From Patescibacteria group bacterium (GTDB taxonomy: Bacteria > Patescibacteriota > Patescibacteriia > JACRDY01): a stretch of DNA of 64,000 nt. The DNA is taken from positions 146,710 to 210,709 of the forward strand of contig JBAZLA010000001.1 in assembly GCA_041650515.1 (NCBI GenBank). Reading direction: 5' to 3'. Positions 1,620-48,626 of this stretch are shown piece after piece; the stretch's first letter is position 1, and every line of letters begins with the position of its first letter. Position numbers and translations under genes: made by a program. Below the pieces are notes generated by a model. The model was not told the origin of the DNA. It worked only from the letters and a program-made list of their open reading frames with translations, and did no database searches.

Positions 1620-1745
1620 CTCAGGGCAGGCTTGCCACCCTACGGGTGGTCCCCCGTAGGGGGAAACCTGCGACCTCCGCGTCCCAAACGCGGCGCGCTA
1701 GCCCCGCCCAAAGGGCGGTCGCCCTCTGGGCGAAACTGTACGCCA
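1620..1745 (-). repeat. Degenerate tRNA-Pro-like copy with double-hairpin insertion in T-loop
   Basis: The reverse complement shares the tRNA-Pro anticodon arm (GCTAGCGCGCCGCGTTTGGGACGCGGAGGTCGCAGGTT). A 30-nt segment TCCCCCTACGGGGGACCACCCGTAGGGTGG then replaces the T-loop. The 5' part reads GCGTACAGTT[TCGCCCAGAGGGCGACCGCCCTTTGGGCGGG]GCTAGCGCG, with an insertion in the D-loop. Confidence 0.6.
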
Positions 1746-2105: not shown

Positions 2106-2117
2106 GCGATAAAAATT

Positions 2118-2198
2118 GAAGGAACAATTCGTACGCGCTAGCCCCGCCCAAAGGGCGGTCGCCCTCTGGGCGAAACTGCGCTACACCCCGATAAAAAA
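2118..2198 (-). repeat. 5' tRNA-Pro fragment duplicate with 31-nt double-hairpin insertion in D-loop
   Basis: The reverse complement is CGGGGTGTAGCGCAGTT[TCGCCCAGAGGGCGACCGCCCTTTGGGCGGG]GCTAGCGCG followed by unrelated sequence. It is identical to the tRNA-Pro 5' end outside the insert. Confidence 0.6.
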
Positions 2199-2392
2199 AT
2201 AATGTTCAGGCAATAAACGCAGAAAACTCGATCCAGAGTCTCCCCCACGCAAATGCCGAGGGGCAGCCCTTCGCTTCGCTCAGGATGACAGACTGCCGAC
2301 CCGTTCGTCCCGATTGTCATCGGAACTCAGGGCAGGCTCCAGGATTTTCTATAAATTTATTCCTGCTAGTCCGGAGTTTATCCCTTTACAAA

Positions 2393-2464
2393 TGCCGAGG
2401 GGCAGGATTGAACTGCCGACGCAAGGATTTTCAGTCCTTCGCTCTACCACTGAGCTACCTCGGC
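2393..2464 (-). tRNA. tRNA-Phe (anticodon GAA)
   Basis: The reverse complement GCCGAGGTAGCTCAGTGGTAGAGCGAAGGACTGAAAATCCTTGCGTCGGCAGTTCAATCCTGCCCCTCGGCA is a 72-nt cloverleaf. The anticodon loop is CTGAAAA. Confidence 0.85.
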
Positions 2465-2533
2465 AAAAATTCTCGGCATTTGTAAAGGGACTCTACCACT
2501 GAGCTACCTCGGCAAAAATTCTCGGCATTTGTG
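2443..2533. repeat. Tandem direct repeat (~49 bp x2) duplicating the tRNA-Phe 5' end plus upstream flank
   Basis: The sequence ctctaccactgagctacctcggcaaaaattctcggcatttgt occurs twice in tandem. A 3'-end fragment aaatgccgaggggcag occurs at 2253 as well as at 2391. Confidence 0.7.
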
Positions 2534-2626
2534 TAAGGGAAACAATGTAGTTTTTAGTCCAAAATTCATCCTCAACGGATAAAAACTTCAACACTTCAGC
2601 TATCTTAACAACTATCTGGTACAAAG

Positions 2627-2936: not shown

Positions 2937-4586
<1,650 letters not shown>

Positions 4587-5157
4587 TTAAATACTGATAA
4601 GTTGTCCGTACACTAACAACACCAGTTGCTAATGTTTACCCCGTAGAGTCTACGGGTTTAACTCTCTCAGTAGAGTTATAAGAGAAAATAAAGTTGAATA
4701 GATAGGTTACTTCGCACTTACGATTTACTATCACTTTTCGATTGTCAATGTTCCTTTTCTCACCTCTTAATTTTTTATCAAATTAAGAGACGAAAAAACA
4801 GTGCGGGCCAAATCAACGACTTCCACTGGGGAATGTCTACTCAGCCATCACTGTTTTTCCGTCTACTTTTCCCCTGTCAGGGGAAAGTTTAGATGAATTG
4901 TAATAATGTTTTTATGGAACTTTTTATGCCTTGCCTCGCCGGTGCCCTAAAAGGGCATAGGCGGGTTATTTTTAAAGCCCTCTCATTATATACCTTTGCT
5001 AGACCCTGTCAAGGGTGAGACAACAAGCCAATAATGCACAAATTATACCCAGTCAATTTATAACCTAAATAGTAAAATAACCATTGTCCAAACCCTTGAC
5101 TAAATTGATTGTCCGTGTTACAGTTACTAATCCATTTCTCACACCAAGGAGGGCACT

Positions 5158-5463
5158 ATGCCCAAAGAACGACCGAGTGTGTTGGCGTTCATCGCCTATC
5201 TGGCGGAACACCAAACGGAATTTCACCTGGGCACCTGGTACCAGGTAGGCAAACCAGGCGTCGATGCGCGCGAAAATGACCTACTCGTGGCCAACTGCCG
5301 CGACAAAGCCGAAGCGGAACACATAGCCGCCGACCGCGACGGATTCGAGGTCAAAGCCATCGTCGTCCTGGCCATGGACGGCTACGATGCGGCCCTGCAG
5401 CTGCATCTCGCGACCATGACCATGACGCTGATCTACATCGGCGTCGCTGACGAAACCGTCTAA
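5158..5463 (+). CDS. Hypothetical protein, GC-rich (~60% GC) island
   Basis: The 101-aa ORF has the ribosome-binding site aaggagggcactATG and a strong intrinsic terminator, aaagccacccccgtggctttttttt, directly downstream. Its composition is far above the ~45% flanks. Confidence 0.5.
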   Translation: MPKERPSVLAFIAYLAEHQTEFHLGTWYQVGKPGVDARENDLLVANCRDKAEAEHIAADRDGFEVKAIVVLAMDGYDAALQLHLATMTMTLIYIGVADETV

Positions 5464-7970: not shown

Positions 7971-8147
7971 AATTGAAAGGTTAAGGATTAGGGTTAAAGC
8001 AAACCAACGTGTTTGCCCATTGTAGGGACATTGTCCTAATTTTGACAGTAGCCCCAGGATACCAAAATACTTTGTTTTAGTCAAGAATCTTGACGGCTAA
8101 CCATCCAACGGGTAATATTGATAATTCATCAACAAAGGGGGGAACCA

Positions 8148-8837
8148 ATGGGCCAATGTCCATTAACAACTTTAGCTGCTCAGAAGAAGATTGACCTGCC
8201 CGGCGAACGACAGCTGGAGTGGATCTACAACCCAGCGCTAAATGAGGTCTCTTTCCGGCTTGATCGGGCAGGTAAGATCGTTTGGCTGATCAGTCTCCAT
8301 CCACTGCCTGGCGGACGATATGAAGAGACCAGTGTCGACATGCTAGGTAAGTTGATCGGGCGACGATGGCAAATGGCTGATGTCAACCTGGAATACCAGC
8401 TGGTCCAGGCCATCATCGAGGCGAACGCACTACTCGATGACCAATTTCCGCTGGTCCAACCAGGGATCTACCAGGCGGTCAAAGATTGGCTGGGGACGAT
8501 CCTTGAAGTTGGCGGCATGGTCAACTTGGTGCTTTGGCTCAAAAAAGTCGGACCAAAATCTGATGCCGGTCGGCTGTTCATCTACCGGGCCAACAACCAT
8601 CAACCGCCGATTCTAACTGGCCGGATCAACAACGCTGACGGCCTGGCCAGACTGATGGCCAAAACCCGGGCTGACGAACAGCCAAACATCTGCCGCCGGT
8701 TGCTGGAATTAATCCCGGAAGAAATCCGGGAAAACGCCAGCAGTCTCCGGCTGGCTGCGGAGATCGCCAGCAAACGCGAAGACTTCCGCGTCTATATGCT
8801 GACTGTCTTCAATAAACTAATTGACTTGGCCAAATAA
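8148..8837 (+). CDS. Hypothetical protein, GC-rich (~53% GC) island
   Basis: The ORF starts at MGQCPLTT after the ribosome-binding site aaaggggggaacc. Hairpin terminators follow it (accgcctcaccgcggttttttt and tctcccctttttaaggggaga). Confidence 0.5.
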   Translation: MGQCPLTTLAAQKKIDLPGERQLEWIYNPALNEVSFRLDRAGKIVWLISLHPLPGGRYEETSVDMLGKLIGRRWQMADVNLEYQLVQAIIEANALLDDQFPLVQPGIYQAVKDWLGTILEVGGMVNLVLWLKKVGPKSDAGRLFIYRANNHQPPILTGRINNADGLARLMAKTRADEQPNICRRLLELIPEEIRENASSLRLAAEIASKREDFRVYMLTVFNKLIDLAK

Positions 8838-8999: not shown

Positions 9000-11273
9000 T
9001 TACTTGGCGTACTGCTGCCCTTCTTCCAGTTTAATCGACAGCATTTTGGAAACACTATCATCACCCATGGTCACGCCATAAAGCACATCGCCCTTGGCCA
9101 TGGTGGTTCGATTATGAGTCACAATAATAAATTGAGTTTTGTGCGCCAGGGTTTCAACAATATTAGACAATCGTTCTGAATTGGCTTCATCCAGCGCCGC
9201 ATCCACCTCATCAAGAACAACAAAGGGGGAGGGATTGCAAGCAATAATGGCGCAGATCAAAGCAATCGCCGTCATCGCTCGCTCGCCGCCTGACAAAGTG
9301 TTGAGACTAGAAATCCTTTTGCCTGGGGGACAAGCCTTAATCTCCACCCCGCCATATTCTAATTCCTTGCTACCGTCGCCGATTCTAGCTTTTCCGCCTC
9401 CGGCGGACCCGCCGTAGGCGGGCTTGTTGACCACCTTACCACTCTCATCCAGCTCTTCTTCATCATCTTCGATCTCGATCATAATTTTTTCCAAACTCGC
9501 CTTACCGCCACCAAACAACACTTGAAAATATTCACCAAACTTAGCATTAATATTTTGAAAAGTCTCATCAAAACGCTTATGGATCTCTTCATCCAACTCG
9601 CGAATAATCTGTCGCAGACTTTCGATGGCCTGAGTTAAATCTTGATACTGCTCATTTAAAAATTCATAACGAACCTTAATCTCTTCATATTCTCTAATCG
9701 ACTCATCATCTAGACCACCGATTAACTCGAGCTGCCGTTTGAGCTTTTGAATTTTGTCATAAGCCTCAGCCATCCCGCTCTCGCCGATCGCCGGCTGCTG
9801 ACTGCTGGTTGGCAATTCAACATCTCCCATCTCTCGTTTAATCTCCCGTTCCAAATCTTCTTTTCGTGTCTCTAGTTTGGCTAGCTCAATCTTGATATCA
9901 TTAACCTTGATTGACAGATTATTAAGCTCGCTTTGCTGACCAGCAAACTGACGTTGCAGATCAAAAAATTCACCTTTTTTCTCTTGCTGTGTTAGGTTAA
10001 AATCAGCAATCGCCCGTTGGCTAGTCACTAATTCTTTAGCCACCAAACCCAAAGCCTCTTGGGTTATTTTTAGTTCCGCTTCTAATTCTTGATCAATTTT
10101 GATCTCCTCATCGGCTGGTTTCCTCACCTTACCCAACAAATCCTTAAGCCGGCCCTTGACATGATGAATTTGGTCTTTGACCTGGCCTAAGTGAACCAAT
10201 TCTTTAATCTGATCAACGTGGCTGATCAACGCTTCGTGGAGACTAATCAACTCTTCAATATACTGAGCCATCTCTTCAGCACCCAGGGGAATAAAATCCT
10301 GCTGGGCCTGCTCTTTGGCTAATTGAATTTTACTCTGCAAGATGAGCTGCCGTGACTGGAGCTGATTTTTCTTATCCAAAATCTGATTAAACTGCTGCTG
10401 TAATTTTTCAAATGCTTCCTGACCCGAATCTTCCTGCTCTAGTTGATTAAGCTTTTGTTGGATTGATCCCAAATTCTCGTGCTTAGCCAGTCGACCATCT
10501 TCAATAGCTTTAAACTCGCTCTGATATTTTTGCCAGTGTTCATTAATATCAAAATACAACTGACCATAATACTGTTGCTGGATACCGCGCAATTCCGTCT
10601 CAATCTCGCCACGCTGTTCAAGCCGCTTGACCAATCGACCGAGTGAACGATAACGCGGCCCTAATTCCTGCAAAGTCACGTCGGTTGTTTTAAGATTTTC
10701 CTCAGTCCGCAAAAGTTTATTCAGGGTCTGGTCCCGCTTGATTTGGTATTCTTTAACCCCAGCTGCCTCATCAAAAAACTCTTTACGCTCAGACTGGGTA
10801 GCCACCAAAAAATGATCCACCATGCCTTGGCCAATAACACTATAAGTCCGCTGACCAAAATTGGCCTTGGCCAATAGAATCAAAATATCCCCCAAGCGCA
10901 CCCGACTCTTATTCAATAAATATTCGCTTTCGCCGTCACGATAAAGCCGGCGGGTAATTACCAACTCAGAATAATCAATCTGAGCTTGGCCATCCTCATT
11001 ATTTAAATACAAAGAAACTTCGGCCATACCCACCCGGGATTTTTTATCCGAACCAAAAAAGATGACGTCTTCGCTCTTTTTACCCCGCAACGTCTTCATC
11101 GACTGTTCACCTAACACCCAGCGGATAGCGTCAGCAATGTTGGATTTACCGCTGCCATTAGGACCAACTACCGCTGTGATGCCTTTACCTTTACCATTAG
11201 CCGAGGGGAATTCTAAAATCGTCCGATTGGCGAACGACTTAAACCCTTGGATCTCGAGTTTTTGTAAATACAT
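9000..11273 (-). CDS. smc: SMC-family chromosome segregation ATPase, unusually short (757 aa)
   Basis: The N-terminal head carries GPNGSGKSN, the Walker A motif. A coiled-coil middle follows. The C-terminal head carries LSGGERAMTAIALICAI...VLDEVDAALD...QFIIVTHNRTTMAKGDVLYGVTM. Confidence 0.7.
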   Translation of the reverse strand: MYLQKLEIQGFKSFANRTILEFPSANGKGKGITAVVGPNGSGKSNIADAIRWVLGEQSMKTLRGKKSEDVIFFGSDKKSRVGMAEVSLYLNNEDGQAQIDYSELVITRRLYRDGESEYLLNKSRVRLGDILILLAKANFGQRTYSVIGQGMVDHFLVATQSERKEFFDEAAGVKEYQIKRDQTLNKLLRTEENLKTTDVTLQELGPRYRSLGRLVKRLEQRGEIETELRGIQQQYYGQLYFDINEHWQKYQSEFKAIEDGRLAKHENLGSIQQKLNQLEQEDSGQEAFEKLQQQFNQILDKKNQLQSRQLILQSKIQLAKEQAQQDFIPLGAEEMAQYIEELISLHEALISHVDQIKELVHLGQVKDQIHHVKGRLKDLLGKVRKPADEEIKIDQELEAELKITQEALGLVAKELVTSQRAIADFNLTQQEKKGEFFDLQRQFAGQQSELNNLSIKVNDIKIELAKLETRKEDLEREIKREMGDVELPTSSQQPAIGESGMAEAYDKIQKLKRQLELIGGLDDESIREYEEIKVRYEFLNEQYQDLTQAIESLRQIIRELDEEIHKRFDETFQNINAKFGEYFQVLFGGGKASLEKIMIEIEDDEEELDESGKVVNKPAYGGSAGGGKARIGDGSKELEYGGVEIKACPPGKRISSLNTLSGGERAMTAIALICAIIACNPSPFVVLDEVDAALDEANSERLSNIVETLAHKTQFIIVTHNRTTMAKGDVLYGVTMGDDSVSKMLSIKLEEGQQYAK

Positions 11274-39023: not shown

Positions 39024-40130
39024 TTATTCTCTTATCTTCAAAAAATACGAAGCTAAATAACTAGCGACTGGAACAGCGGCCATTAGGGCTATGCTACCAA
39101 CTAACATTCTTACTATCTCAGTTGCCACAATTTCATTACTGACCACCTGCTCAAACCCTAGAAAAGGTGGTTCGTGAACATTAAACAAAATTAATAATGG
39201 AAGTGACGCGCCAGCATAGGCAAAAAACAATGTGTTGGTCATAGAGCTTATATGGTCAACGCCCACCTTCAAACTACTAAAAAATATTTCTCTATTAGAG
39301 AATTTAGGATTAGCTCTTTTAAGCTGTTCAACCACCGAAATCTGACTAATAACTACGTCATCTAAAACACCTAAAACACCGATTAAAATTCCGGCCAACA
39401 GTAGCCCTTCCAGGTTTAAACTATTACCATATAAGTTAATTAAATAAATCGATTCTTCGCCCGCTAAACCAGACAACTTAACAAAAGATGAAAAAAATAC
39501 AGACAACAACCCCGCTAAAGCTAAAGAAAAAAATAAACTAGCGTTAGCTAAATGCGCTTTCCTATTCAAACCTTGAGTTAAATAAATAGCTAAAGCTAAA
39601 ATTAAAAAACCCCCCACAACAGTTATAAAAACCGGGCTGCCGCCGTTTATTATTCTAGGAATAATTATTTTTAGAATAACGACGAAACTGATCAATAGGG
39701 CAATCAGAGAACGAAACCCCTTCCACTTGCCAACGATCAAAACACTAATAGCAAAAACAAGAAATAATAAATAAATTTTATTAGTTCTGTAGTAGTCTAC
39801 TATATATATTTGGCTGTTTCCCTCAAAATCAAAACTTTCCGCTACCAAAACCTTGTCACCTTTTTGATAAATATTATTTTTGACAACTTCAAAATCGTGT
39901 ACCCCTTCAAAAATAAATTCTTTACCCTTGTAGCCATTTTCTAAGCCTCTAATCTTTATATTCTGTTGAGTATATACCCGACCATCTTCAGACTCTTTTT
40001 CAGTCTCTAATAAAATCTCGAGGACCTCGGCTTTGAATATTTTTTCCTCTGGAATATCAGCTCCTTCTTGCGCGAAAAGAAAAGAAGGTATTAATAATAG
40101 AACCAAAAATATAAATATTATTTTTTGCAT
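39024..40130 (-). CDS. YibE/F-like membrane protein
   Basis: 368 aa with a signal peptide and extracellular domain, then a polytopic region with DDVVISQISVVE...NTLFFAYAGASLP. Confidence 0.45.
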   Translation of the reverse strand: MQKIIFIFLVLLLIPSFLFAQEGADIPEEKIFKAEVLEILLETEKESEDGRVYTQQNIKIRGLENGYKGKEFIFEGVHDFEVVKNNIYQKGDKVLVAESFDFEGNSQIYIVDYYRTNKIYLLFLVFAISVLIVGKWKGFRSLIALLISFVVILKIIIPRIINGGSPVFITVVGGFLILALAIYLTQGLNRKAHLANASLFFSLALAGLLSVFFSSFVKLSGLAGEESIYLINLYGNSLNLEGLLLAGILIGVLGVLDDVVISQISVVEQLKRANPKFSNREIFFSSLKVGVDHISSMTNTLFFAYAGASLPLLILFNVHEPPFLGFEQVVSNEIVATEIVRMLVGSIALMAAVPVASYLASYFLKIRE

Positions 40131-40154
40131 ATGAGCGTATTATATCTCAATTCC

Positions 40155-40232
40155 ACTAAAATCAAAAACACCTCCCAAAATAGGAGATGTCTTTTCCTTT
40201 GTCTTCGAACTTATGCCTAGAAACAAAGATCA
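40155..40232 (+). repeat. 75-bp direct repeat, copy A (terminator-like hairpin + T-rich tract)
   Basis: It matches 40790-40865 at about 88% identity. The sequence is aaaaacacctccc...ggagatgtcttttcctttgtcttcgaacttatgcctagaaacaaag. Confidence 0.7.
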
Positions 40233-40252
40233 GCTATGTGACGCGTTCAGAA

Positions 40253-40768
40253 CTATAGATGAAGCTTTGCGCCTTGATATTTCTCTAATAATTTCTTAAT
40301 ATCCTTATTAGATTTTATAATAATTATTTTTTTATTACTATGTTTCTTTAATAACTCTAGTGCTCTAGGTTTTCTTTCCTGAGGATATTCTAACAAAATA
40401 TTTCTAATTAACTTAAGGCTTACTTTTTCTTCACAATTGTTTAACTTATCAATTCTATCTTTTAAAATTCTTCTCTTAAACACTCGCCAGAGACAAACAG
40501 AACGATTGATATCTAAAAATATTATTGCATCGGTTGCTGGAGCTATAATATCAAGGGTGCTTTTATAATTTCCTTCTAAAATCCAACGGTCAGTTTTTAT
40601 CAACTCTAAAACTTTTTTTCGCCATCCACTTTTTTCTGGACTTTTCCATCCTGGTTGCCAATAACATTGGTCTAAACTCACAAAAGGAAAACTCAATATT
40701 TCACCAATCTTTTTTGCAATTGTAGATTTACCAGACCCAGAAGAACCTATAATTAAAATTCTTTTCAT
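40253..40768 (-). CDS. P-loop NTPase (adenylate-kinase/FlaR 'topology modulation'-like)
   Basis: 171 aa with a Walker A motif in ILIIGSSGSGKSTIAKKIG. The gene is bracketed by the 75-bp direct repeats. Confidence 0.55.
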   Translation of the reverse strand: MKRILIIGSSGSGKSTIAKKIGEILSFPFVSLDQCYWQPGWKSPEKSGWRKKVLELIKTDRWILEGNYKSTLDIIAPATDAIIFLDINRSVCLWRVFKRRILKDRIDKLNNCEEKVSLKLIRNILLEYPQERKPRALELLKKHSNKKIIIIKSNKDIKKLLEKYQGAKLHL

Positions 40769-40789
40769 ATAGACGAATTATACCTTATT

Positions 40790-40865
40790 TCTCAAACCAA
40801 AAACACCTCCCTCATCAGAAGGAGATGTCTTTTCCTTTGTCTTCGAGCTTATGCTTAGAGACAAA
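40790..40865 (+). repeat. 75-bp direct repeat, copy B, abutting tRNA-His
   Basis: See copy A. Confidence 0.7.
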
Positions 40866-40938
40866 GGTGACCGACGGGAATCGAACCCGTATAGCTGGTG
40901 CCACAGACCAGTGCACTAACCATTGTGCTACGGTCACC
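40866..40938 (-). tRNA. tRNA-His (anticodon GTG) with encoded G-1
   Basis: The reverse complement is G-GTGACCGTAGCACAATGGTTAGTGCACTGGTCTGTGGCACCAGCTATACGGGTTCGATTCCCGTCGGTCACC. The extra 5' G pairs with the discriminator C, which is the His identity element. The anticodon loop is CTGTGGC. Confidence 0.8.
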
Positions 40939-40984
40939 ATACATTAATTATTAATTACTAATTAATAATTGGTAACTGTTGTAA

Positions 40985-41264
40985 TCGCCCTCAGTAGGAA
41001 TCCCACCCCTACGGGTGGTGGCCCGTTAGGGCCAGAACCTACAAGAGAACAGTTGCTCTACTACTGGTTTCCAATATTCGCCCTCAGTAGGAATCCCACC
41101 CCTACGGGTGGTGGCCCGTTAGGGCCAGAACCTACAAGAGAACAGTTGCTCTACTACTGGTTTCCAATATTCGCCCTCAGTAGGAATCCCACCCCTACGG
41201 GTGGTGGCCCGTTAGGGCCAGAACCTACAAGAGAACAGTTGCTCTACTACTGGTTTCCAATATT
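40985..41264. repeat. Three tandem 93-bp units, each ending (tRNA orientation) in the 17-nt tRNA-Arg 3' terminus and containing a tRNA-3'-half-like segment with 32-nt double-hairpin insertion
   Basis: The units begin at 40985, 41079 and 41172 and are essentially identical. The next copy at 41265 is the genuine tRNA-Arg. The ORF-track 113-aa frame 40969..41310 is a repeat artefact. Confidence 0.8.
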
Positions 41265-41336
41265 CGCCCTCAGTAGGAATCGAACCTACATATCCAGCTT
41301 AGAAGGCTAGTGTTCTATCCATTGAACTATGAGGGC
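41265..41336 (-). tRNA. tRNA-Arg (anticodon TCT)
   Basis: The reverse complement GCCCTCATAGTTCAATGGATAGAACACTAGCCTTCTAAGCTGGATATGTAGGTTCGATTCCTACTGAGGGCG is a 72-nt cloverleaf. Confidence 0.8.
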
Positions 41337-41389
41337 TCAATTCGCACGAGTAAACCCAATTCTATCATATTTTTTTCAAAAATCAACCC

Positions 41390-42448
41390 CTAACTCTTTT
41401 TCCGCTGGCGACCATGAAAAGCCTTATAGACCTCACGCAAATGTTTATCGGTAATATGAGTATAAATTTGGGTTGTGGTGATGGAAGCATGGCCCAATAA
41501 CGACTGCACCGAACGGATATCAGCACCAGAAGTTAATAAATCAGTGGCAAAACTATGACGCAAAGTGTGCGGCGTAATCTTTTTGGTGATGCCGGCCAGC
41601 CGAGCGTACTTTTTGATCAATCGTTGCACTGACCGCGGCGTCAAAAAACTCACCTCCTCTACTCCTCTGGACTCTGGACTCGGGACTCGGGACTTATTTG
41701 CCCGATCATGACTAACAAAAATATAATCCGAACCATCCCGTCGAGTCGCCAAATAGCGTCGTAACCAAAATTTAGCTTGGTTAGAAATAAAAACCACTCG
41801 CGGTTTGTCACCCTTGCCCCGGACGGTAAATTCTTCTTTAGCTAGATTAATCTGATCTTTTTGAAGATGGACTAATTCTGAGACGCGCAGACCAGTCGAA
41901 AACAACATTTCTAATATGGCTTTGTCGCGGAGCGGAATAATATTGGCAATATAATCATTACCATCTTGATCAATCTCAACTTTATTAATCTGTAACGGCG
42001 CAGCTAAAAACCGTTCTAGATCGCTGCCTTCTAAATATTCAATGTGCCGTTCGGACTGCCTCGCTAGCTCAATTTTTTCTGGTGCCAAAGACCTAATATC
42101 GTTTTTGGCTAAATATTTAAGAAAAGAGCGCAAAGCAATCAGATGATAGTTCTGAGTGCTACTCTTGAGATTTTTACCATGATCATCAGTAGCTCGATTG
42201 AGCCAAAGCCGAAACTGACGGATCAGGCTCGAGTCGACATCTTCAATCTTAAAACTTTTGTTTTTACTTTTAGCCCAATTAAAAAACCGCTGTAAATAAA
42301 AATCATAATTACGAATCGTAGCTTGCGCTCGACCACGTTCGATCTCGAGATATTCGAGAAAATTAGTGACTAGGGGATTAGCTGACATAATTAAGAAAGC
42401 AAAAAAGCATACGGCCTCTCCGCCGAATCGGCGGATTGGCCTAAGCAA
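41390..42448 (-). CDS. Tyrosine site-specific recombinase/integrase (XerC/D-like)
   Basis: 352 aa with an N-terminal SAM-like domain. The catalytic C-terminus reads HTLRHSFATDLLTSGADIRSVQSLLGHASITTTQIYTHI (R...HxxR...Y). It is adjacent to tRNA-Arg. Confidence 0.8.
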   Translation of the reverse strand: MLRPIRRFGGEAVCFFAFLIMSANPLVTNFLEYLEIERGRAQATIRNYDFYLQRFFNWAKSKNKSFKIEDVDSSLIRQFRLWLNRATDDHGKNLKSSTQNYHLIALRSFLKYLAKNDIRSLAPEKIELARQSERHIEYLEGSDLERFLAAPLQINKVEIDQDGNDYIANIIPLRDKAILEMLFSTGLRVSELVHLQKDQINLAKEEFTVRGKGDKPRVVFISNQAKFWLRRYLATRRDGSDYIFVSHDRANKSRVPSPESRGVEEVSFLTPRSVQRLIKKYARLAGITKKITPHTLRHSFATDLLTSGADIRSVQSLLGHASITTTQIYTHITDKHLREVYKAFHGRQRKKS

Positions 42449-42601
42449 AAAAACAAATATTGTTTTTTTGTTTTCTTGTTTTCTTGATTTATTGCTTTCT
42501 CATTATATTTTACGACACTAAAAGAATAAAGGCAAATAAAAAAACCGCCCCAGCTCTCCTATAGCTACAAGCGGCGAATTTATTGTCTTTCCCTCCTGGG
42601 T

Positions 42602-43795
42602 TTAGAACTCCAAGCCGTGGATGCCCAGCACAGCCTCGTTGCCATCCAGCATCTCGCGGATCATGGCGTCGAGATGCGGTATCGTCTCCGACGCCAGGTC
42701 CAACACCGTAACCGCCGTCTGGCCATTACCTTGGTTGACCACGGCGCTGATATTGCCGCCGGCCTCGGCAACCTTGCTGGTCAAGAAGGCTAAGACCCCG
42801 GGTTGATCATGATGCAGCGCGGTCAACCGCTGCTTGACGTTTGCCGCTGGTGAGCTACCGGCGGACGGGAAGTTGACGCTGTTTCTGACGACACCCCAGT
42901 GCAACCATTCGTACAAAGTGTCACTGGCCATCTTAGCGCAACGATCTTCCGACTCTTGAGTCGAAGCGCCCAAGTGTGGTGTGCAAATCACACCCGGATG
43001 ACCGACCACGCCGGGTGTGGCAAAGTCGGTAATATAACACAGATTCTGGTCGGCATCCAACATCGCCACAATCGTCTTCTCATCAACCACCCCGGCACGA
43101 GAGAGATTGGCGATAAACGACCCGCCAAACGCCGACAATACCTTGGAACCCAACAGGCCCTTGGTAGCAGCGTTAAGAGGCACATGCACGGTCAAAATCG
43201 CCGCCTTCGCCGCCACTTCCTCGAGCGGAAGTAGCGTCACCCCGGGTACCAGGCGCAAAGCGTTGGCCGTCGTCAGCCCGGGGTCACAGGCGACCACCTG
43301 CATTCCCAAGGCCACGGCTTGGTTGGCCACCGCGATGCCTACCTGACCTAAGCCGACCACGCCGAGTGTTTGACCCCGCAATTCGCGACCGGCAAAGGCC
43401 TTCTTACCTTTTTCAACTTCTTTTTTCATCTCGTCGGCCGTCTTACCGGCCAAACCCGAGACGAATTGCAGCGCGGGTACGACCTTACGCAAGGCCATAC
43501 CGAGGAGAACGAACAACAGCTCGGCCACGCTTTGAGCGTTAGCCCCCGGCGCGTTAAACACCGGGATGCCCCGCTCGGTCGCCGCCGCAACCGGAATGTT
43601 GTCCGTGCCGCTGCCGGCGCGAGCAACGCCCTGTAAACTCGGATATAATCCGATATCCACGGGGGCGCTGCGCACCATAATGCCGACAACCCTTTCCAAC
43701 ACCATTTCCGGACCAGCGGTGACAAAATCACAGTTGCTACCCGACCAATCCGGTCTCCCCAATCCATTCAACAACAGAACTTGGCGCTCTTTCAT
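42602..43795 (-). CDS. D-isomer-specific 2-hydroxyacid dehydrogenase, SerA-like (with C-terminal ACT-like region), GC-rich (~60%)
   Basis: 397 aa with the NAD-binding motif GVVGLGQVGIAVANQAVALGMQVVACDP and a catalytic HLGAST-type region. Composition is far above the flanks. Confidence 0.7.
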   Translation of the reverse strand: MKERQVLLLNGLGRPDWSGSNCDFVTAGPEMVLERVVGIMVRSAPVDIGLYPSLQGVARAGSGTDNIPVAAATERGIPVFNAPGANAQSVAELLFVLLGMALRKVVPALQFVSGLAGKTADEMKKEVEKGKKAFAGRELRGQTLGVVGLGQVGIAVANQAVALGMQVVACDPGLTTANALRLVPGVTLLPLEEVAAKAAILTVHVPLNAATKGLLGSKVLSAFGGSFIANLSRAGVVDEKTIVAMLDADQNLCYITDFATPGVVGHPGVICTPHLGASTQESEDRCAKMASDTLYEWLHWGVVRNSVNFPSAGSSPAANVKQRLTALHHDQPGVLAFLTSKVAEAGGNISAVVNQGNGQTAVTVLDLASETIPHLDAMIREMLDGNEAVLGIHGLEF

Positions 43796-43896
43796 CCTAC
43801 ACCTCTCCTCCTGGTTATTCAGATTTCAATTCCGGAAGCAAGCACTGCTCATATCTTAACTAGTTCTGATCTAAACTGTCAATTGATCACCATGGT

Positions 43897-47702: not shown

Positions 47703-48113
47703 TCACGCCGCGGGCAGCTTGATCTCGGCTCGGACGATCATCTCCAGGATTTGCCGGCCGATCGCCTGGTCGCCCTCGATGACCACCCTCTGGGCAGCCA
47801 ACGACATCGCAACCTGCCTGGTCGCCACTTCCGCCTCGCGCAACGGCTGCTCACGGCAGAAGCTGAGGAAGGTGGCCACATCCAGCTTAATCATCGCCCA
47901 AGTGGCTTCTCCATCGGTTACCGCCGTGGGCACAACGGCCTGCAACACTCGGGGCATCGACCCGGTCAGGTCAATCTCCCACTGACGATCAGGCCAAAAC
48001 CGCATGGTAATGTAGCTCTGGGGCAACCCGTGATCACCCTGCTGAAGCAATTGCTTCAATTGTTCAAAAGCCATCCCAATCGCCGCATCAGCCCGATCTT
48101 TAGCATGTGACAT
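47703..48113 (-). CDS. SCP2-like lipid-binding domain protein, GC-rich
   Basis: Start is at MSHAKDRAD after the ribosome-binding site ggagga. The C-terminus reads VVIEGDQAIGRQILEMI, an SCP2-type signature. The terminator gccacccgtaggtgac plus T7 lies downstream on the minus strand. Confidence 0.45.
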   Translation of the reverse strand: MSHAKDRADAAIGMAFEQLKQLLQQGDHGLPQSYITMRFWPDRQWEIDLTGSMPRVLQAVVPTAVTDGEATWAMIKLDVATFLSFCREQPLREAEVATRQVAMSLAAQRVVIEGDQAIGRQILEMIVRAEIKLPAA

Positions 48114-48248
48114 TGGTCCTCCTGGTGGTACTACCCTAATGACATACAAAACAACTTTATCCTGCACAGTAACAAACCAACCTAACGAAGTCAAGATAAA
48201 AAAATAAAAAAATCCCCGAAGGGATTGTGCTGCCGGCGATGAGTAAAA

Positions 48249-48626
48249 TCAACCCAACGGCAGAAGCTGAGCCTGGCTCAGCCATTCCAACAGCTGCCGG
48301 CCGGCCTTCTGATTACCCCGAATCTCAATCCAACCGGTTGCGAGCGCCGCCTCAATTTCTCTCGCACTGAGGTGTCCGCGAACCAAGTTGAGAAAACCCC
48401 CAGATGTCATATTGATCACAGTGACATCCGGTGATATCGGGGGAATGGCAAAACGCTGACTTACCGGGATCGCGACACCAGATGTATCGACGTCCCACCA
48501 CAGGGTAACCGAACCAGCCAGCAGATGAAACTCAAACCTTTTTCGAGGCAAAGTAACATTGCCCACTTGTAGCAACTTTCCCAGTGCCCCGAAAACACCA
48601 TTCACCAAGTCACGAAGCTCGGGCAT
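48249..48626 (-). CDS. SCP2-like lipid-binding domain protein (paralog of preceding), GC-rich
   Basis: 125 aa. The C-terminus reads WIEIRGNQKAGRQLLEWLSQ. Confidence 0.45.
   Translation of the reverse strand: MPELRDLVNGVFGALGKLLQVGNVTLPRKRFEFHLLAGSVTLWWDVDTSGVAIPVSQRFAIPPISPDVTVINMTSGGFLNLVRGHLSAREIEAALATGWIEIRGNQKAGRQLLEWLSQAQLLPLG

Follow-up and report, generated by a model that had tools for sequence, protein, structure and literature searches.

Tandem tRNA-end repeats beside a xer gene in a Patescibacteria group bacterium: probably local changes on an inherited scaffold rather than an island

A tyrosine recombinase gene, two tRNA genes, reiterated tRNA 3' ends, and a gene of foreign composition lie together at 40.1-43.8 kb of a 64,000-nucleotide stretch of DNA from the metagenome-assembled genome of a Patescibacteria group bacterium (contig JBAZLA010000001.1; the whole stretch is called the window below). 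The question that this locus raises is whether they form a mobile island. A preliminary description took the repeated tRNA ends for the stacked footprints of successive integrations and excisions at tRNA-Arg, and the neighboring recombinase for the integrase. What was observed there is confirmed by our analysis, but the island and integrase interpretation is mostly wrong. The segment is probably a vertically inherited scaffold that has undergone three independent local changes, among them the amplification of a tRNA relic by slippage or recombination.

The scaffold shared with relatives

Loci of Patescibacteria relatives (L001, L003, L005, L007, L018, L023, L088, L089, and others) were compared with the window. 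The order pnp-NYN-rpsO-variable slot-xer-tRNA-Arg(TCT)-tRNA-His is common to L001, L003, and L005, with Xer proteins that are 70-72% identical, and blastn extends the same pnp-to-tRNA-His scaffold to L007 and L018. Nucleotide homology covers exactly the scaffold genes, and there is none between rpsO and the xer promoter. The xer, tRNA, repeat, NTPase, and SerA-like features of the segment all sit on the minus strand of the window, as follows.

39024-40130, minus strand: YibE/F-family membrane protein gene (PF07907, E 7e-66; GC 0.34), the first gene past module copy A
40131-40252, minus strand: intergenic module copy A, with a palindrome, a terminator (40194-40164), and a TATAAT box
40253-40768, minus strand: P-loop NTPase gene (171 aa; GC 0.29; GC at third codon positions (GC3) 0.20)
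40769-40864, minus strand: intergenic module copy B, directly at the tRNA-His 3' end, with a terminator (40822-40806)
40865-40938, minus strand: tRNA-His(GTG) (ARAGORN; Rfam tRNA, 68.1 bits)
40939-40985, minus strand: original Arg-His spacer, AT-rich (ATTAATT x4; promoter-like site)
40986-41264, minus strand: three identical 93-bp units (41172-41264, 41079-41171, and 40986-41078)
41003-41034, minus strand: double-hairpin T-loop insert of unit 3 (identical copies at 41096-41127 and 41189-41220)
41265-41336, minus strand: tRNA-Arg(TCT), first gene of the operon (promoter-like TTGATT-16-TAGAAT at 41386-41359)
41390-42391, minus strand: xer, Xer-type tyrosine recombinase (332 aa; PF00589, PF02899)
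42392-42545, minus strand: xer 5' region, the xer-side border of the variable slot (hairpin at 42398-42424; promoter)
42602-43795, minus strand: SerA-like D-2-hydroxyacid dehydrogenase gene (397 aa; ACT-like C terminus; PF02826, PF00389)

In the tRNA sense, a promoter-like site is followed by tRNA-Arg(TCT), the three units, a 47-nt AT-rich spacer, and tRNA-His(GTG), and then by the 96-nt module copy B, the NTPase gene, module copy A, and the YibE/F gene. On the 5' side of the tRNA operon lie xer and then the SerA-like gene, beyond which rpsO, an NYN-domain gene, and pnp diverge on the plus strand. Both tRNA genes had already been recognized in the preliminary description and were recovered with ARAGORN and Rfam.

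The recombinase is a housekeeping Xer

The gene described earlier as a XerC/D-like tyrosine integrase (41390-42448) does encode a tyrosine recombinase, with a homologue-supported start at the ATG at 42391. The fold is recognized by PF00589 (E 1e-41) and PF02899, and the catalytic residues Arg-168, Lys-192, His-274, Arg-277, His-300, and Tyr-309 (R, K, H-x-x-R, H, Y) are invariant in an alignment of seven sequences. The NCBIfam model NF040815 (XerA_Arch) gives a score of 227.2, above its cut-off of 220. The XerD and XerC equivalog models both stay below theirs (246 against 329.6 and 231.6 against 335, respectively), as does the integron integrase model TIGR02249 (122.6 against 265); the window holds two palindromic modules only, without attC features.

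The role of integrase did not stand. A database search returned 8000 matches. The best of them, the protein itself aside, show 60-72% identity and represent a wide range of Patescibacteria classes, among them Kuenenbacteria, Buchananbacteria, Magasanikbacteria, and Kerfeldbacteria. In a set of 80 species-representative genomes, the closest group has tRNA-Arg(TCT) behind xer at a distance of 600 nt or less, an arrangement found in at least nine relatives, and some relatives with a syntenic xer-tRNA-Arg pair carry no 93-bp-type repeats. An element-encoded integrase would be absent from island-free relatives; here the Xer is conserved at 60-72% and syntenic with tRNA-Arg. The recombinase is the conserved housekeeping Xer of the chromosome and not an island integrase. 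With the single-recombinase Xer systems (XerA, XerS, and XerH) it shares the single Xer, the full catalytic set, and the XerA_Arch score above cut-off. It differs from them by lineage-specific insertions, including a tract encoded by 7-bp repeats, and no dif site was identified in the 64-kb window.

The tract in question is an in-frame CTCGGGA x4.3 repeat at 41665-41694. A 7- or 8-bp tandem tract occurs in the same protein loop of xer in the window, in L003 (8667-8707), and in L005 (8667-8696), and the repeat sequence is different in each. A short tandem repeat is also present in the xer 5' untranslated region of all three loci: TTGTTTTC x5.1 at 42460-42500 in the window, and repeats at 7932-7994 in L003 and 7968-8003 in L005. 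Gain or loss of one unit in the coding tract would put the gene out of frame, so that Xer could conceivably be phase variable. The xer promoter (TTGCCT-17-TAAAAT at 42535-42507) is kept in L003, with 89% identity over 37 nt.

The 93-bp units

Tandem Repeats Finder reports the array at 40985-41281 with a period of 93 and 3.2 copies, 100% matches, and no indels. The preliminary description was right that three identical 93-bp units carry the tRNA-Arg 3' end, but they do not precede the tRNA gene, except when the plus strand is read; in the orientation of tRNA-Arg they lie downstream, between tRNA-Arg and tRNA-His. Each unit contains the final 17 nt of tRNA-Arg, GATTCCTACTGAGGGCG, and a further 8 nt shared with the tRNA, GTAGGTTC, which correspond to the 5' strand of the T-stem and the first part of the T-loop. 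In the tRNA sense, the unit reads AATATTGGAAACCAGTAGTAGAGCAACTGTTCTCTT-GTAGGTTC-(TGGCCCTAACGGGCCA CCACCCGTAGGGGTGG)-GATTCCTAC-TGAGGGCG, that is, a 36-nt spacer, the 8-nt block, a 32-nt GC-rich double hairpin, and the tRNA end. The unit thus holds both strands of the tRNA-Arg T-stem, a split T-loop, and the acceptor 3' strand with the discriminator base. The T-loop is broken between C56 and G57 by the double hairpin, TGGCCCTAACGGGCCA followed by CCACCCGTAGGGGTGG. Identity of 100% among the units extends to the 76 nt without tRNA origin, so that they point to one unit that was recently amplified and not to three footprints.

Comparison with the relatives places the array and reveals other states of the locus. 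The flank that follows the array, ATTACAACAG...TTATTAATTAG, is homologous to the L003 sequence straight after tRNA-Arg (window 40958-41008 aligns at 82% directly 3' of the L003 gene), which places the array behind the functional gene and ahead of the trailer that this gene originally had. The Arg-His spacer measures 36 nt in L001, 78 nt in L003, 255 nt in L005, and 326 nt in the window. The relic is absent in L001 and L003, and one relic is present at the same place in L005, L007/L089, L088, and L023. In L007/L089 it consists of GTAGGTTC, 54 nt, and GATTCCTAC-CGAGGGTACCA, and it retains the clade-typical T-stem GTAGG/CCTAC. The T-stem of the functional tRNA-Arg in the same locus differs, so that the relic is older than, or foreign to, the working gene. 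From these alignments, the 93-bp units appear to be a single relic of the tRNA-Arg 3' part, recently amplified.

Direct repeats of this kind (17-25 nt, at a spacing of 93 nt) are typical targets of slippage or unequal exchange, with deletion or amplification as the outcome. We infer that a tRNA-Arg 3' relic with a hairpin-broken T arm sat downstream of the functional gene, and that slippage or unequal recombination between the 17-nt (plus 8-nt) repeats multiplied the 93-bp interval to three; elsewhere, the same process would have removed the relic. Array and tRNAs most likely share one transcript, and the array would not require a function of its own. Two findings make slippage plausible here. 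Patescibacteria loci totalling 0.94 Mb contain 10 tandem arrays with a period of at least 30, of which 3 overlap a tRNA end (93 x 3.2 at Arg and 49 x 2.0 at Phe in the window; 35 x 2.3 at Arg in L023), and a similar structure exists at tyrT/tyrV of E. coli.

The E. coli tyrT-tyrV array (rtT), which is annotated with rttR and tpr, was checked here and is a repeat of 178 bp x 3.1 (95% identity) that extends 19 nt into the 3' end of tyrV. Both arrays lie directly 3' of a tRNA, begin inside its 3' end, comprise about three copies, and have units that end in the tRNA 3'-terminal bases. In the window, however, the unit is 93 and not 178 bp long, the copies are perfect, the array lies between two different tRNA genes, and the unit additionally has a T-loop with a GC-rich double hairpin, preceded by the 5' strand of the T-stem. 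An RNA or peptide product is known for the E. coli repeats and none for the window array. The repeats also create a 113-aa open reading frame (ORF) with a 31-aa period at 40969-41310 on the plus strand, in antisense to the tRNA operon. This ORF is probably spurious and has a counterpart in the tpr ORF within the E. coli tyrT repeats.

Several observations weigh against amplification of a passive relic as the whole account. Slippage alone leaves the origin of the first relic unexplained. The 76-nt unit body was not copied from the ancestral spacer, and the T-loop insert requires a separate event. The acceptor strand of the relic fits the functional tRNA of the window and not the older L005 type, so that gene conversion or a local origin must be assumed, and the fold of the unit beats shuffled sequence. 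The first relics may have arisen when a tRNA cassette was inserted, as footprints left by small integrative elements, or through local duplication with later insertion of the hairpins.

The fold bears on the alternative that the array encodes functional small RNAs, its units being cut from an Arg-His precursor as a tRNA-like minihelix, as RttR is from E. coli tyrT. The minimum-free-energy structure (-41.1 kcal/mol, z -3.3) stacks a 7-bp acceptor-like stem on the T-stem, with two loop hairpins, and a terminator scan finds none between tRNA-Arg and tRNA-His. The E. coli repeats do encode an annotated small RNA, and in Paceibacteria a three-way junction of the same topology (motif R1, described below) follows tRNA genes and shows strong covariation and conserved G-U pairs. 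However, by reading of the alignment the acceptor-like stem is not kept in the L007 homologue, for which reason no minihelix RNA is claimed for the unit. Moreover, the identical copies yield no covariation signal, the close relatives L001 and L003 are without the relic, and the R1 model has no match in the window. On this evidence, small-RNA function is unlikely. Rfam 15 contains no family for the 93-nt unit or the 75-nt module, with only tRNAs reaching the gathering score in the window. At E<=10, the interval 40100-41400 gives chance-level matches only, and the tRNA-trailing inserts in five relatives are also without a family.

The stacked-integration model, in which the 17-mers are att sites left at a tRNA-Arg attB by the adjacent recombinase, is largely refuted as an account of the triplication, and we regard a mobile island spanning 40.1-43.8 kb as very improbable. 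In its favor, the duplicated block spans the T-loop to the discriminator base, which is the region that tRNA-targeting integrases reportedly duplicate as a rule (Williams is said to have described this in 2002). Similar 13-19-nt 3'-end duplicates are found 95-190 nt 3' of many Patescibacteria tRNAs, and a real recombinase-bearing element adjoins tRNA-His in L001. On the other hand, the non-tRNA sequence is identical among the units, an integrating circle of 93 bp is implausibly small, and the copies have no element body between them. The recombinase is the conserved Xer, lies 5' of the tRNA, and keeps its synteny in repeat-free relatives; viral contigs scanned for a 25-mer of the tRNA-Arg T-arm/3' end gave no match. 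Compared with a true attL/attR duplication, the array shares the block from T-loop to discriminator base that flanks inserted DNA. It differs in the identically repeated 76-nt insert, in the lack of an element body and of an element-encoded integrase, and in having a housekeeping Xer as its neighbor.

We give as little credence to an assembly artefact with a true count of one, two, or another number. In its favor, perfect repeats with a period below read length are often miscounted, and the copies are 100% identical. Against it, the junctions at both array ends require the 3' end of the tRNA itself and one relic or more, homologous single relics occur in independent assemblies, and such an error would touch copy number alone and not the existence of the relic. 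Three is the number of copies in the assembly, and the true count in a perfect 93-bp repeat may differ.

The tRNA-His trailer and the NTPase gene

As described earlier, the P-loop NTPase ORF (40253-40768) is bracketed by two ~75-bp direct repeats, with 85% identity between 40182-40241 and 40820-40879 and 90% identity between 40156-40176 and 40791-40811. A 26-mer of the repeat occurs exactly twice in the window, against an expectation of zero. Both module copies contain a 14-4-14 imperfect palindrome (CTTTGTTTCTAGGC ATAA GTTCGAAGACAAAG in copy A), an intrinsic terminator, and a TATAAT box 8 nt ahead of the next ATG; the terminator hairpin of copy A has a T-run. Copy B starts at the last base of tRNA-His and is 95% identical over 43 nt to the tRNA-His 3' flank of L003. 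As the Xer proteins of L003 and the window are only 71% identical, this match indicates a conserved operon trailer. Judged from these alignments, copy B is the ancestral trailer of the tRNA operon and copy A its diverged duplicate. The repeats are thus trailer copies and not the att sites of a demonstrated element.

The 21 nt before copy A agree with the tRNA-His 3' end at 11 of 21 positions, which is weak evidence that the duplicated block may once have held a tRNA end, as integration at tRNA-His would give. There is no second copy of the tRNA-His 3' end in the window at three or fewer mismatches. Neither do tRNA 3'-end repeats bound foreign genes here: the 17-mers enclose only 76-nt intervals, and the SerA-like gene lies 5' of xer, outside any such repeats.

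The NTPase is of the adenylate-kinase-like or "DNA topology modulation protein" type (FlaR-like kinase). It aligns over its full length with NF005994, with a score of 170.8 bits below the cut-off of 215. Its best homologues are 54-59% identical and come from unrelated phyla and unrelated gene contexts; no relative was found in the PDB. The neighborhoods of the two nearest homologues show no association with tRNA-His or the module. The NTPase gene is an accessory gene that is sporadically distributed and low in GC. We suggest that it was inserted in the tRNA-His trailer and that the whole ~96-nt terminator/promoter module was duplicated with it, so that the NTPase gene and the next gene would each still have a -10 box and a terminator ahead of them.

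In single-Xer systems, dif often lies beside xer, as in XerS/difSL and XerH/difH. This arrangement would suit a different reading of the NTPase gene, as a site-specific recombination cassette in which the palindrome of each module, taken as 12-8-12, is a dif- or attC-like Xer core site and the 638-bp insert resembles an IMEX (integrative mobile element exploiting Xer) or dif module. The palindrome does have core-site architecture, its sequence including the loop is conserved in L003, and a single accessory gene is bracketed by two direct copies. Against this, GC skew is negative and monotonic over all 64 kb with no terminus-like inflection near 40.8 kb, and a dif site was accordingly given low weight as an explanation of the palindrome. 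Only two module copies exist in the window, and the NTPase homologues examined are not flanked by such modules. Because the whole intergenic region is duplicated, including terminator and -10 box, homologous or illegitimate duplication fits equally. A recombination cassette is thus a poor prospect, and insertion with duplication of the trailer module remains our preferred reading.

The DNA behind tRNA-His is also altered in relatives. In L003 (9404-9608) and L005 (9610-9718), a terminator and then a GC-rich structured insert of 100-190 nt separate tRNA-His from a repeat of its own last 15 nt. In L003, the conserved trailer module comes only after this second end copy, as expected if the insert entered at the T-loop. 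In L001, a large serine recombinase with Resolvase, Recombinase, and zinc-ribbon domains (9340-10980, minus strand) overlaps the tRNA-His 3' end with its last codons and is followed by a low-GC block of small genes, which makes it a true integrative element at tRNA-His in a relative.

The SerA-like gene and the rpsO-xer slot

The SerA-like gene, reported earlier as foreign with about 60% GC, has a GC content of 0.588 and a GC3 of 0.69, the highest among the long ORFs of the window. The window mean is 0.437, and the GC3 of most window genes is 0.36-0.49. The homology search proposed for this gene and the recombinase gave Xer proteins from Patescibacteria broadly and, for the SerA-like protein, only distant matches: the best database homologues are 42-48% identical, and the few named ones belong to metagenome-assembled genomes of Pseudomonadota/Gammaproteobacteria (e.g. 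Methylococcales). The top 28 PDB matches are all D-3-phosphoglycerate dehydrogenases, with E values down to 3e-35, and the match to E. coli SerA reaches the ACT region. The scores stay below the equivalog cut-offs for phosphoglycerate dehydrogenase (TIGR01327, 190 against 454; NF008759, 155.4 against 404). The substrate is therefore not established, and only the name SerA-like is used. By composition and homology, the gene appears to be foreign and horizontally acquired from an unsampled donor. A chimeric assembly is unlikely, as both flanks regain the rpsO/xer context within ~250 nt.

The slot between rpsO and xer differs in content in every relative examined. The SerA-like gene stands alone there in the window. 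In L005, the slot contains a SerA-like gene that is 36% identical to that of the window, together with genes for an OPT transporter and a class-V aminotransferase, with a GC content of 0.53-0.58 against 0.39-0.43 in the flanks. L003 has a GC-enriched pair of MFS transporter and cation-efflux genes, and L001 has three small genes without known function. These differing contents mark the slot as a site where GC-richer genes have settled repeatedly; neither repeats nor att-like sequences were found at its borders. The GC-rich SerA-like gene, from an unsampled donor, occupies it between rpsO and the xer promoter. Together with the SerA-like/aminotransferase pair of the relative, it suggests a piecemeal gain of serine-pathway enzymes in organisms that are usually described as lacking amino-acid synthesis.

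A hotspot of change without a single island

The neighborhood is a real hotspot of change, since the slot, the Arg-His spacer, and the DNA 3' of tRNA-His all vary among relatives and L001 carries an element at tRNA-His. The comparison with relatives that had been suggested earlier thus reveals variation at these places, but on a conserved scaffold that includes xer. Atypical composition and presence/absence polymorphism, as looked for in tRNA-associated islands, do occur, but as separate small insertions and not as one island. As the Xer is conserved and syntenic, the units are identical, and the direct repeats are trailer copies, the island and integrase reading is not supported for these parts. 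A tyrosine recombinase next to tRNA ends can mimic an island in candidate-phyla genomes, which calls for caution when islands are called.

Hairpin-broken tRNA pieces beside tRNA genes

The locus as first described is a variant of known things, and its value lies in exposing a pattern of relics and hairpins that deserves a systematic survey. Partial tRNA copies are common beside the tRNA genes of these loci: 59 same-strand copies (exact matches of at least 10 nt) lie within 450 nt on either side of such genes, whereas a control with reversed flanks gives 1. The 5' pieces lie upstream and the 3' pieces downstream of the genes. The latter mostly span the T-loop to the discriminator base, with CCA where it is gene-encoded, and 13-19-nt 3'-end duplicates occur 95-190 nt downstream of many Patescibacteria tRNAs.

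Three further cases lie near the 16S gene of the window, two of the tRNA-Pro type and one of tRNA-Phe. A near full-length tRNA-Pro-like relic (1620-1745, minus strand) shares 39 identical nt with the functional tRNA-Pro (2032-2105). Its D-loop and its T-loop each carry a GC-rich double hairpin (30 nt in the D-loop), its acceptor stem is not preserved, and a terminator follows (fold -86.4 kcal/mol, z -6.6). The second hairpin of its T-loop insert (1635-1649), CCACCCGTAGGGTGG, recurs in the Arg unit. Upstream, a 5' piece of tRNA-Pro (nt 1-27; 2106-2200, minus strand) carries the same 30-nt D-loop double hairpin as this relic. At tRNA-Phe (2248-2545, minus strand), the leader and the first 23 nt are duplicated as 49 bp x 2.0, the downstream 3' piece has a 25-nt T-loop insert, and the leader is perfectly complementary over 20 nt to the tRNA 3' end and trailer.

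The same double-hairpin design is found in a protein gene. An SMC-like gene (9000-11273, minus strand) contains a 30-nt double hairpin at 9393-9422, TCCGCCTCCGGCGGA followed by CCCGCCGTAGGCGGG, which is in frame and encodes PAYGGSAGGG in a hypervariable loop ahead of the PPGK...LSGGE motif. It is missing from the closest homologue, which is 67% identical. Adjacent GC-rich hairpins, with G-U pairs allowed, number 88 genome-wide against 32 in shuffles, a noisy count that was not used. Yeast mitochondrial GC clusters and Rickettsia palindromic elements are small GC-rich palindromic insertion elements. The inserts described here are like them in being short GC-rich palindromes at tolerant sites of RNA relics in an AT-richer genome, one of them in frame in the SMC-like gene. 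They differ in being only ~30 nt long and in consisting of paired near-duplicate hairpins, with mobility only a candidate property.

In the relatives, whole tRNA genes are nested as well. In L088 (8495-8670), a complete tRNA-Arg with complementary flanks lies between anticodon nt 35 and 36 of a second tRNA-Arg with nothing lost, and the RNA is predicted to fold as one cloverleaf inside another (-81.7 kcal/mol, z -5.1). L023 (7450-7790) has a tRNA-Arg(TCT) nested in a D-loop, and L005 (9139-9350) a related nesting. In L087 (1866-1918) and L090 (1499-1551), a T arm of the Arg(TCT) type, a 30-nt hairpin insert, and an acceptor strand lie downstream of Arg(GCG), so that such pieces are not always copies of their neighbor.

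Paceibacteria-type loci have a conserved core, GCCGGA...GAGGCGGGGTCGCG...GTGAC, between the tRNA and its duplicated 3' end. This R1 motif is a candidate three-way junction, the closing stem of which uses the duplicated tRNA T-loop/3' end. A covariance model finds 18 copies in relatives (L034 11658-11746, L049 11456-11540, L039 9940-10022, L072 12406-12488 on the minus strand, and 14 more), of which 15 lie within 50 nt downstream of a tRNA gene. They occur directly 3' of tRNA-Gly, -Arg, -Pro, and -Lys genes and in both orientations. Paired cells make up 92.9%, against 72.5% in shuffles, and compensatory changes are seen in 16 of 26 pairs, both figures being somewhat inflated because the alignment was fitted to the model; some G-U pairs are conserved. 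R1 is not represented in Rfam. Its model matches neither the window nor the closest relatives, so that the 93-nt unit does not belong to R1 by sequence.

The literature that was found comprises group I introns in Patescibacteria tRNAs and archaeal disruption models, and contains no account of these relics; the habit of keeping hairpin-broken tRNA pieces beside tRNA genes in Patescibacteria is apparently undescribed. In the Caldiarchaeum model, a tRNA fragment beside a complete gene of the same isoacceptor is ascribed to insertion at the tRNA locus (PMC3293823). The window shares the fragment adjoining a complete gene of the same isoacceptor. It is bacterial, however, with small hairpin inserts in D- and T-loops in place of bulge-helix-bulge introns and no 1.8-kb recombinase element in between. 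For group I introns in Patescibacteria tRNA genes, anticodon position 35/36 is enriched as insertion site (PMC13011429), and with these our cases share the unusually frequent breakage of tRNA genes and the nested insertion at 35/36 in L088. The inserts here differ in their length of 25-130 nt, without a group I core or an Rfam match, and in lying in the D- and T-loops of partial copies or containing a whole tRNA.

It is possible, although rather doubtful, that Patescibacteria tRNA genes are repeatedly rebuilt by an undescribed insertional system. Such a system would place leader-tRNA-trailer blocks in or beside older relics, with R1 RNA closing on the tRNA 3'-end copy and the 93-bp array as an amplified member, maybe processed to tRNA-like RNAs. 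If the pattern holds, it bears on the upkeep and replacement of essential single-copy tRNA genes in tiny genomes and on the origin of disrupted tRNA genes.

Two minor features concern other parts of the window. Further ORFs at 47703-48626, 5158-5463, and 8118-8837 have a GC content of 0.53-0.59 against a background of 0.44 and may be acquired. The 16S rRNA match at 2937-4590 on the minus strand measures 1654 nt against a model of 1533 positions, which suggests insertions of ~120 nt.

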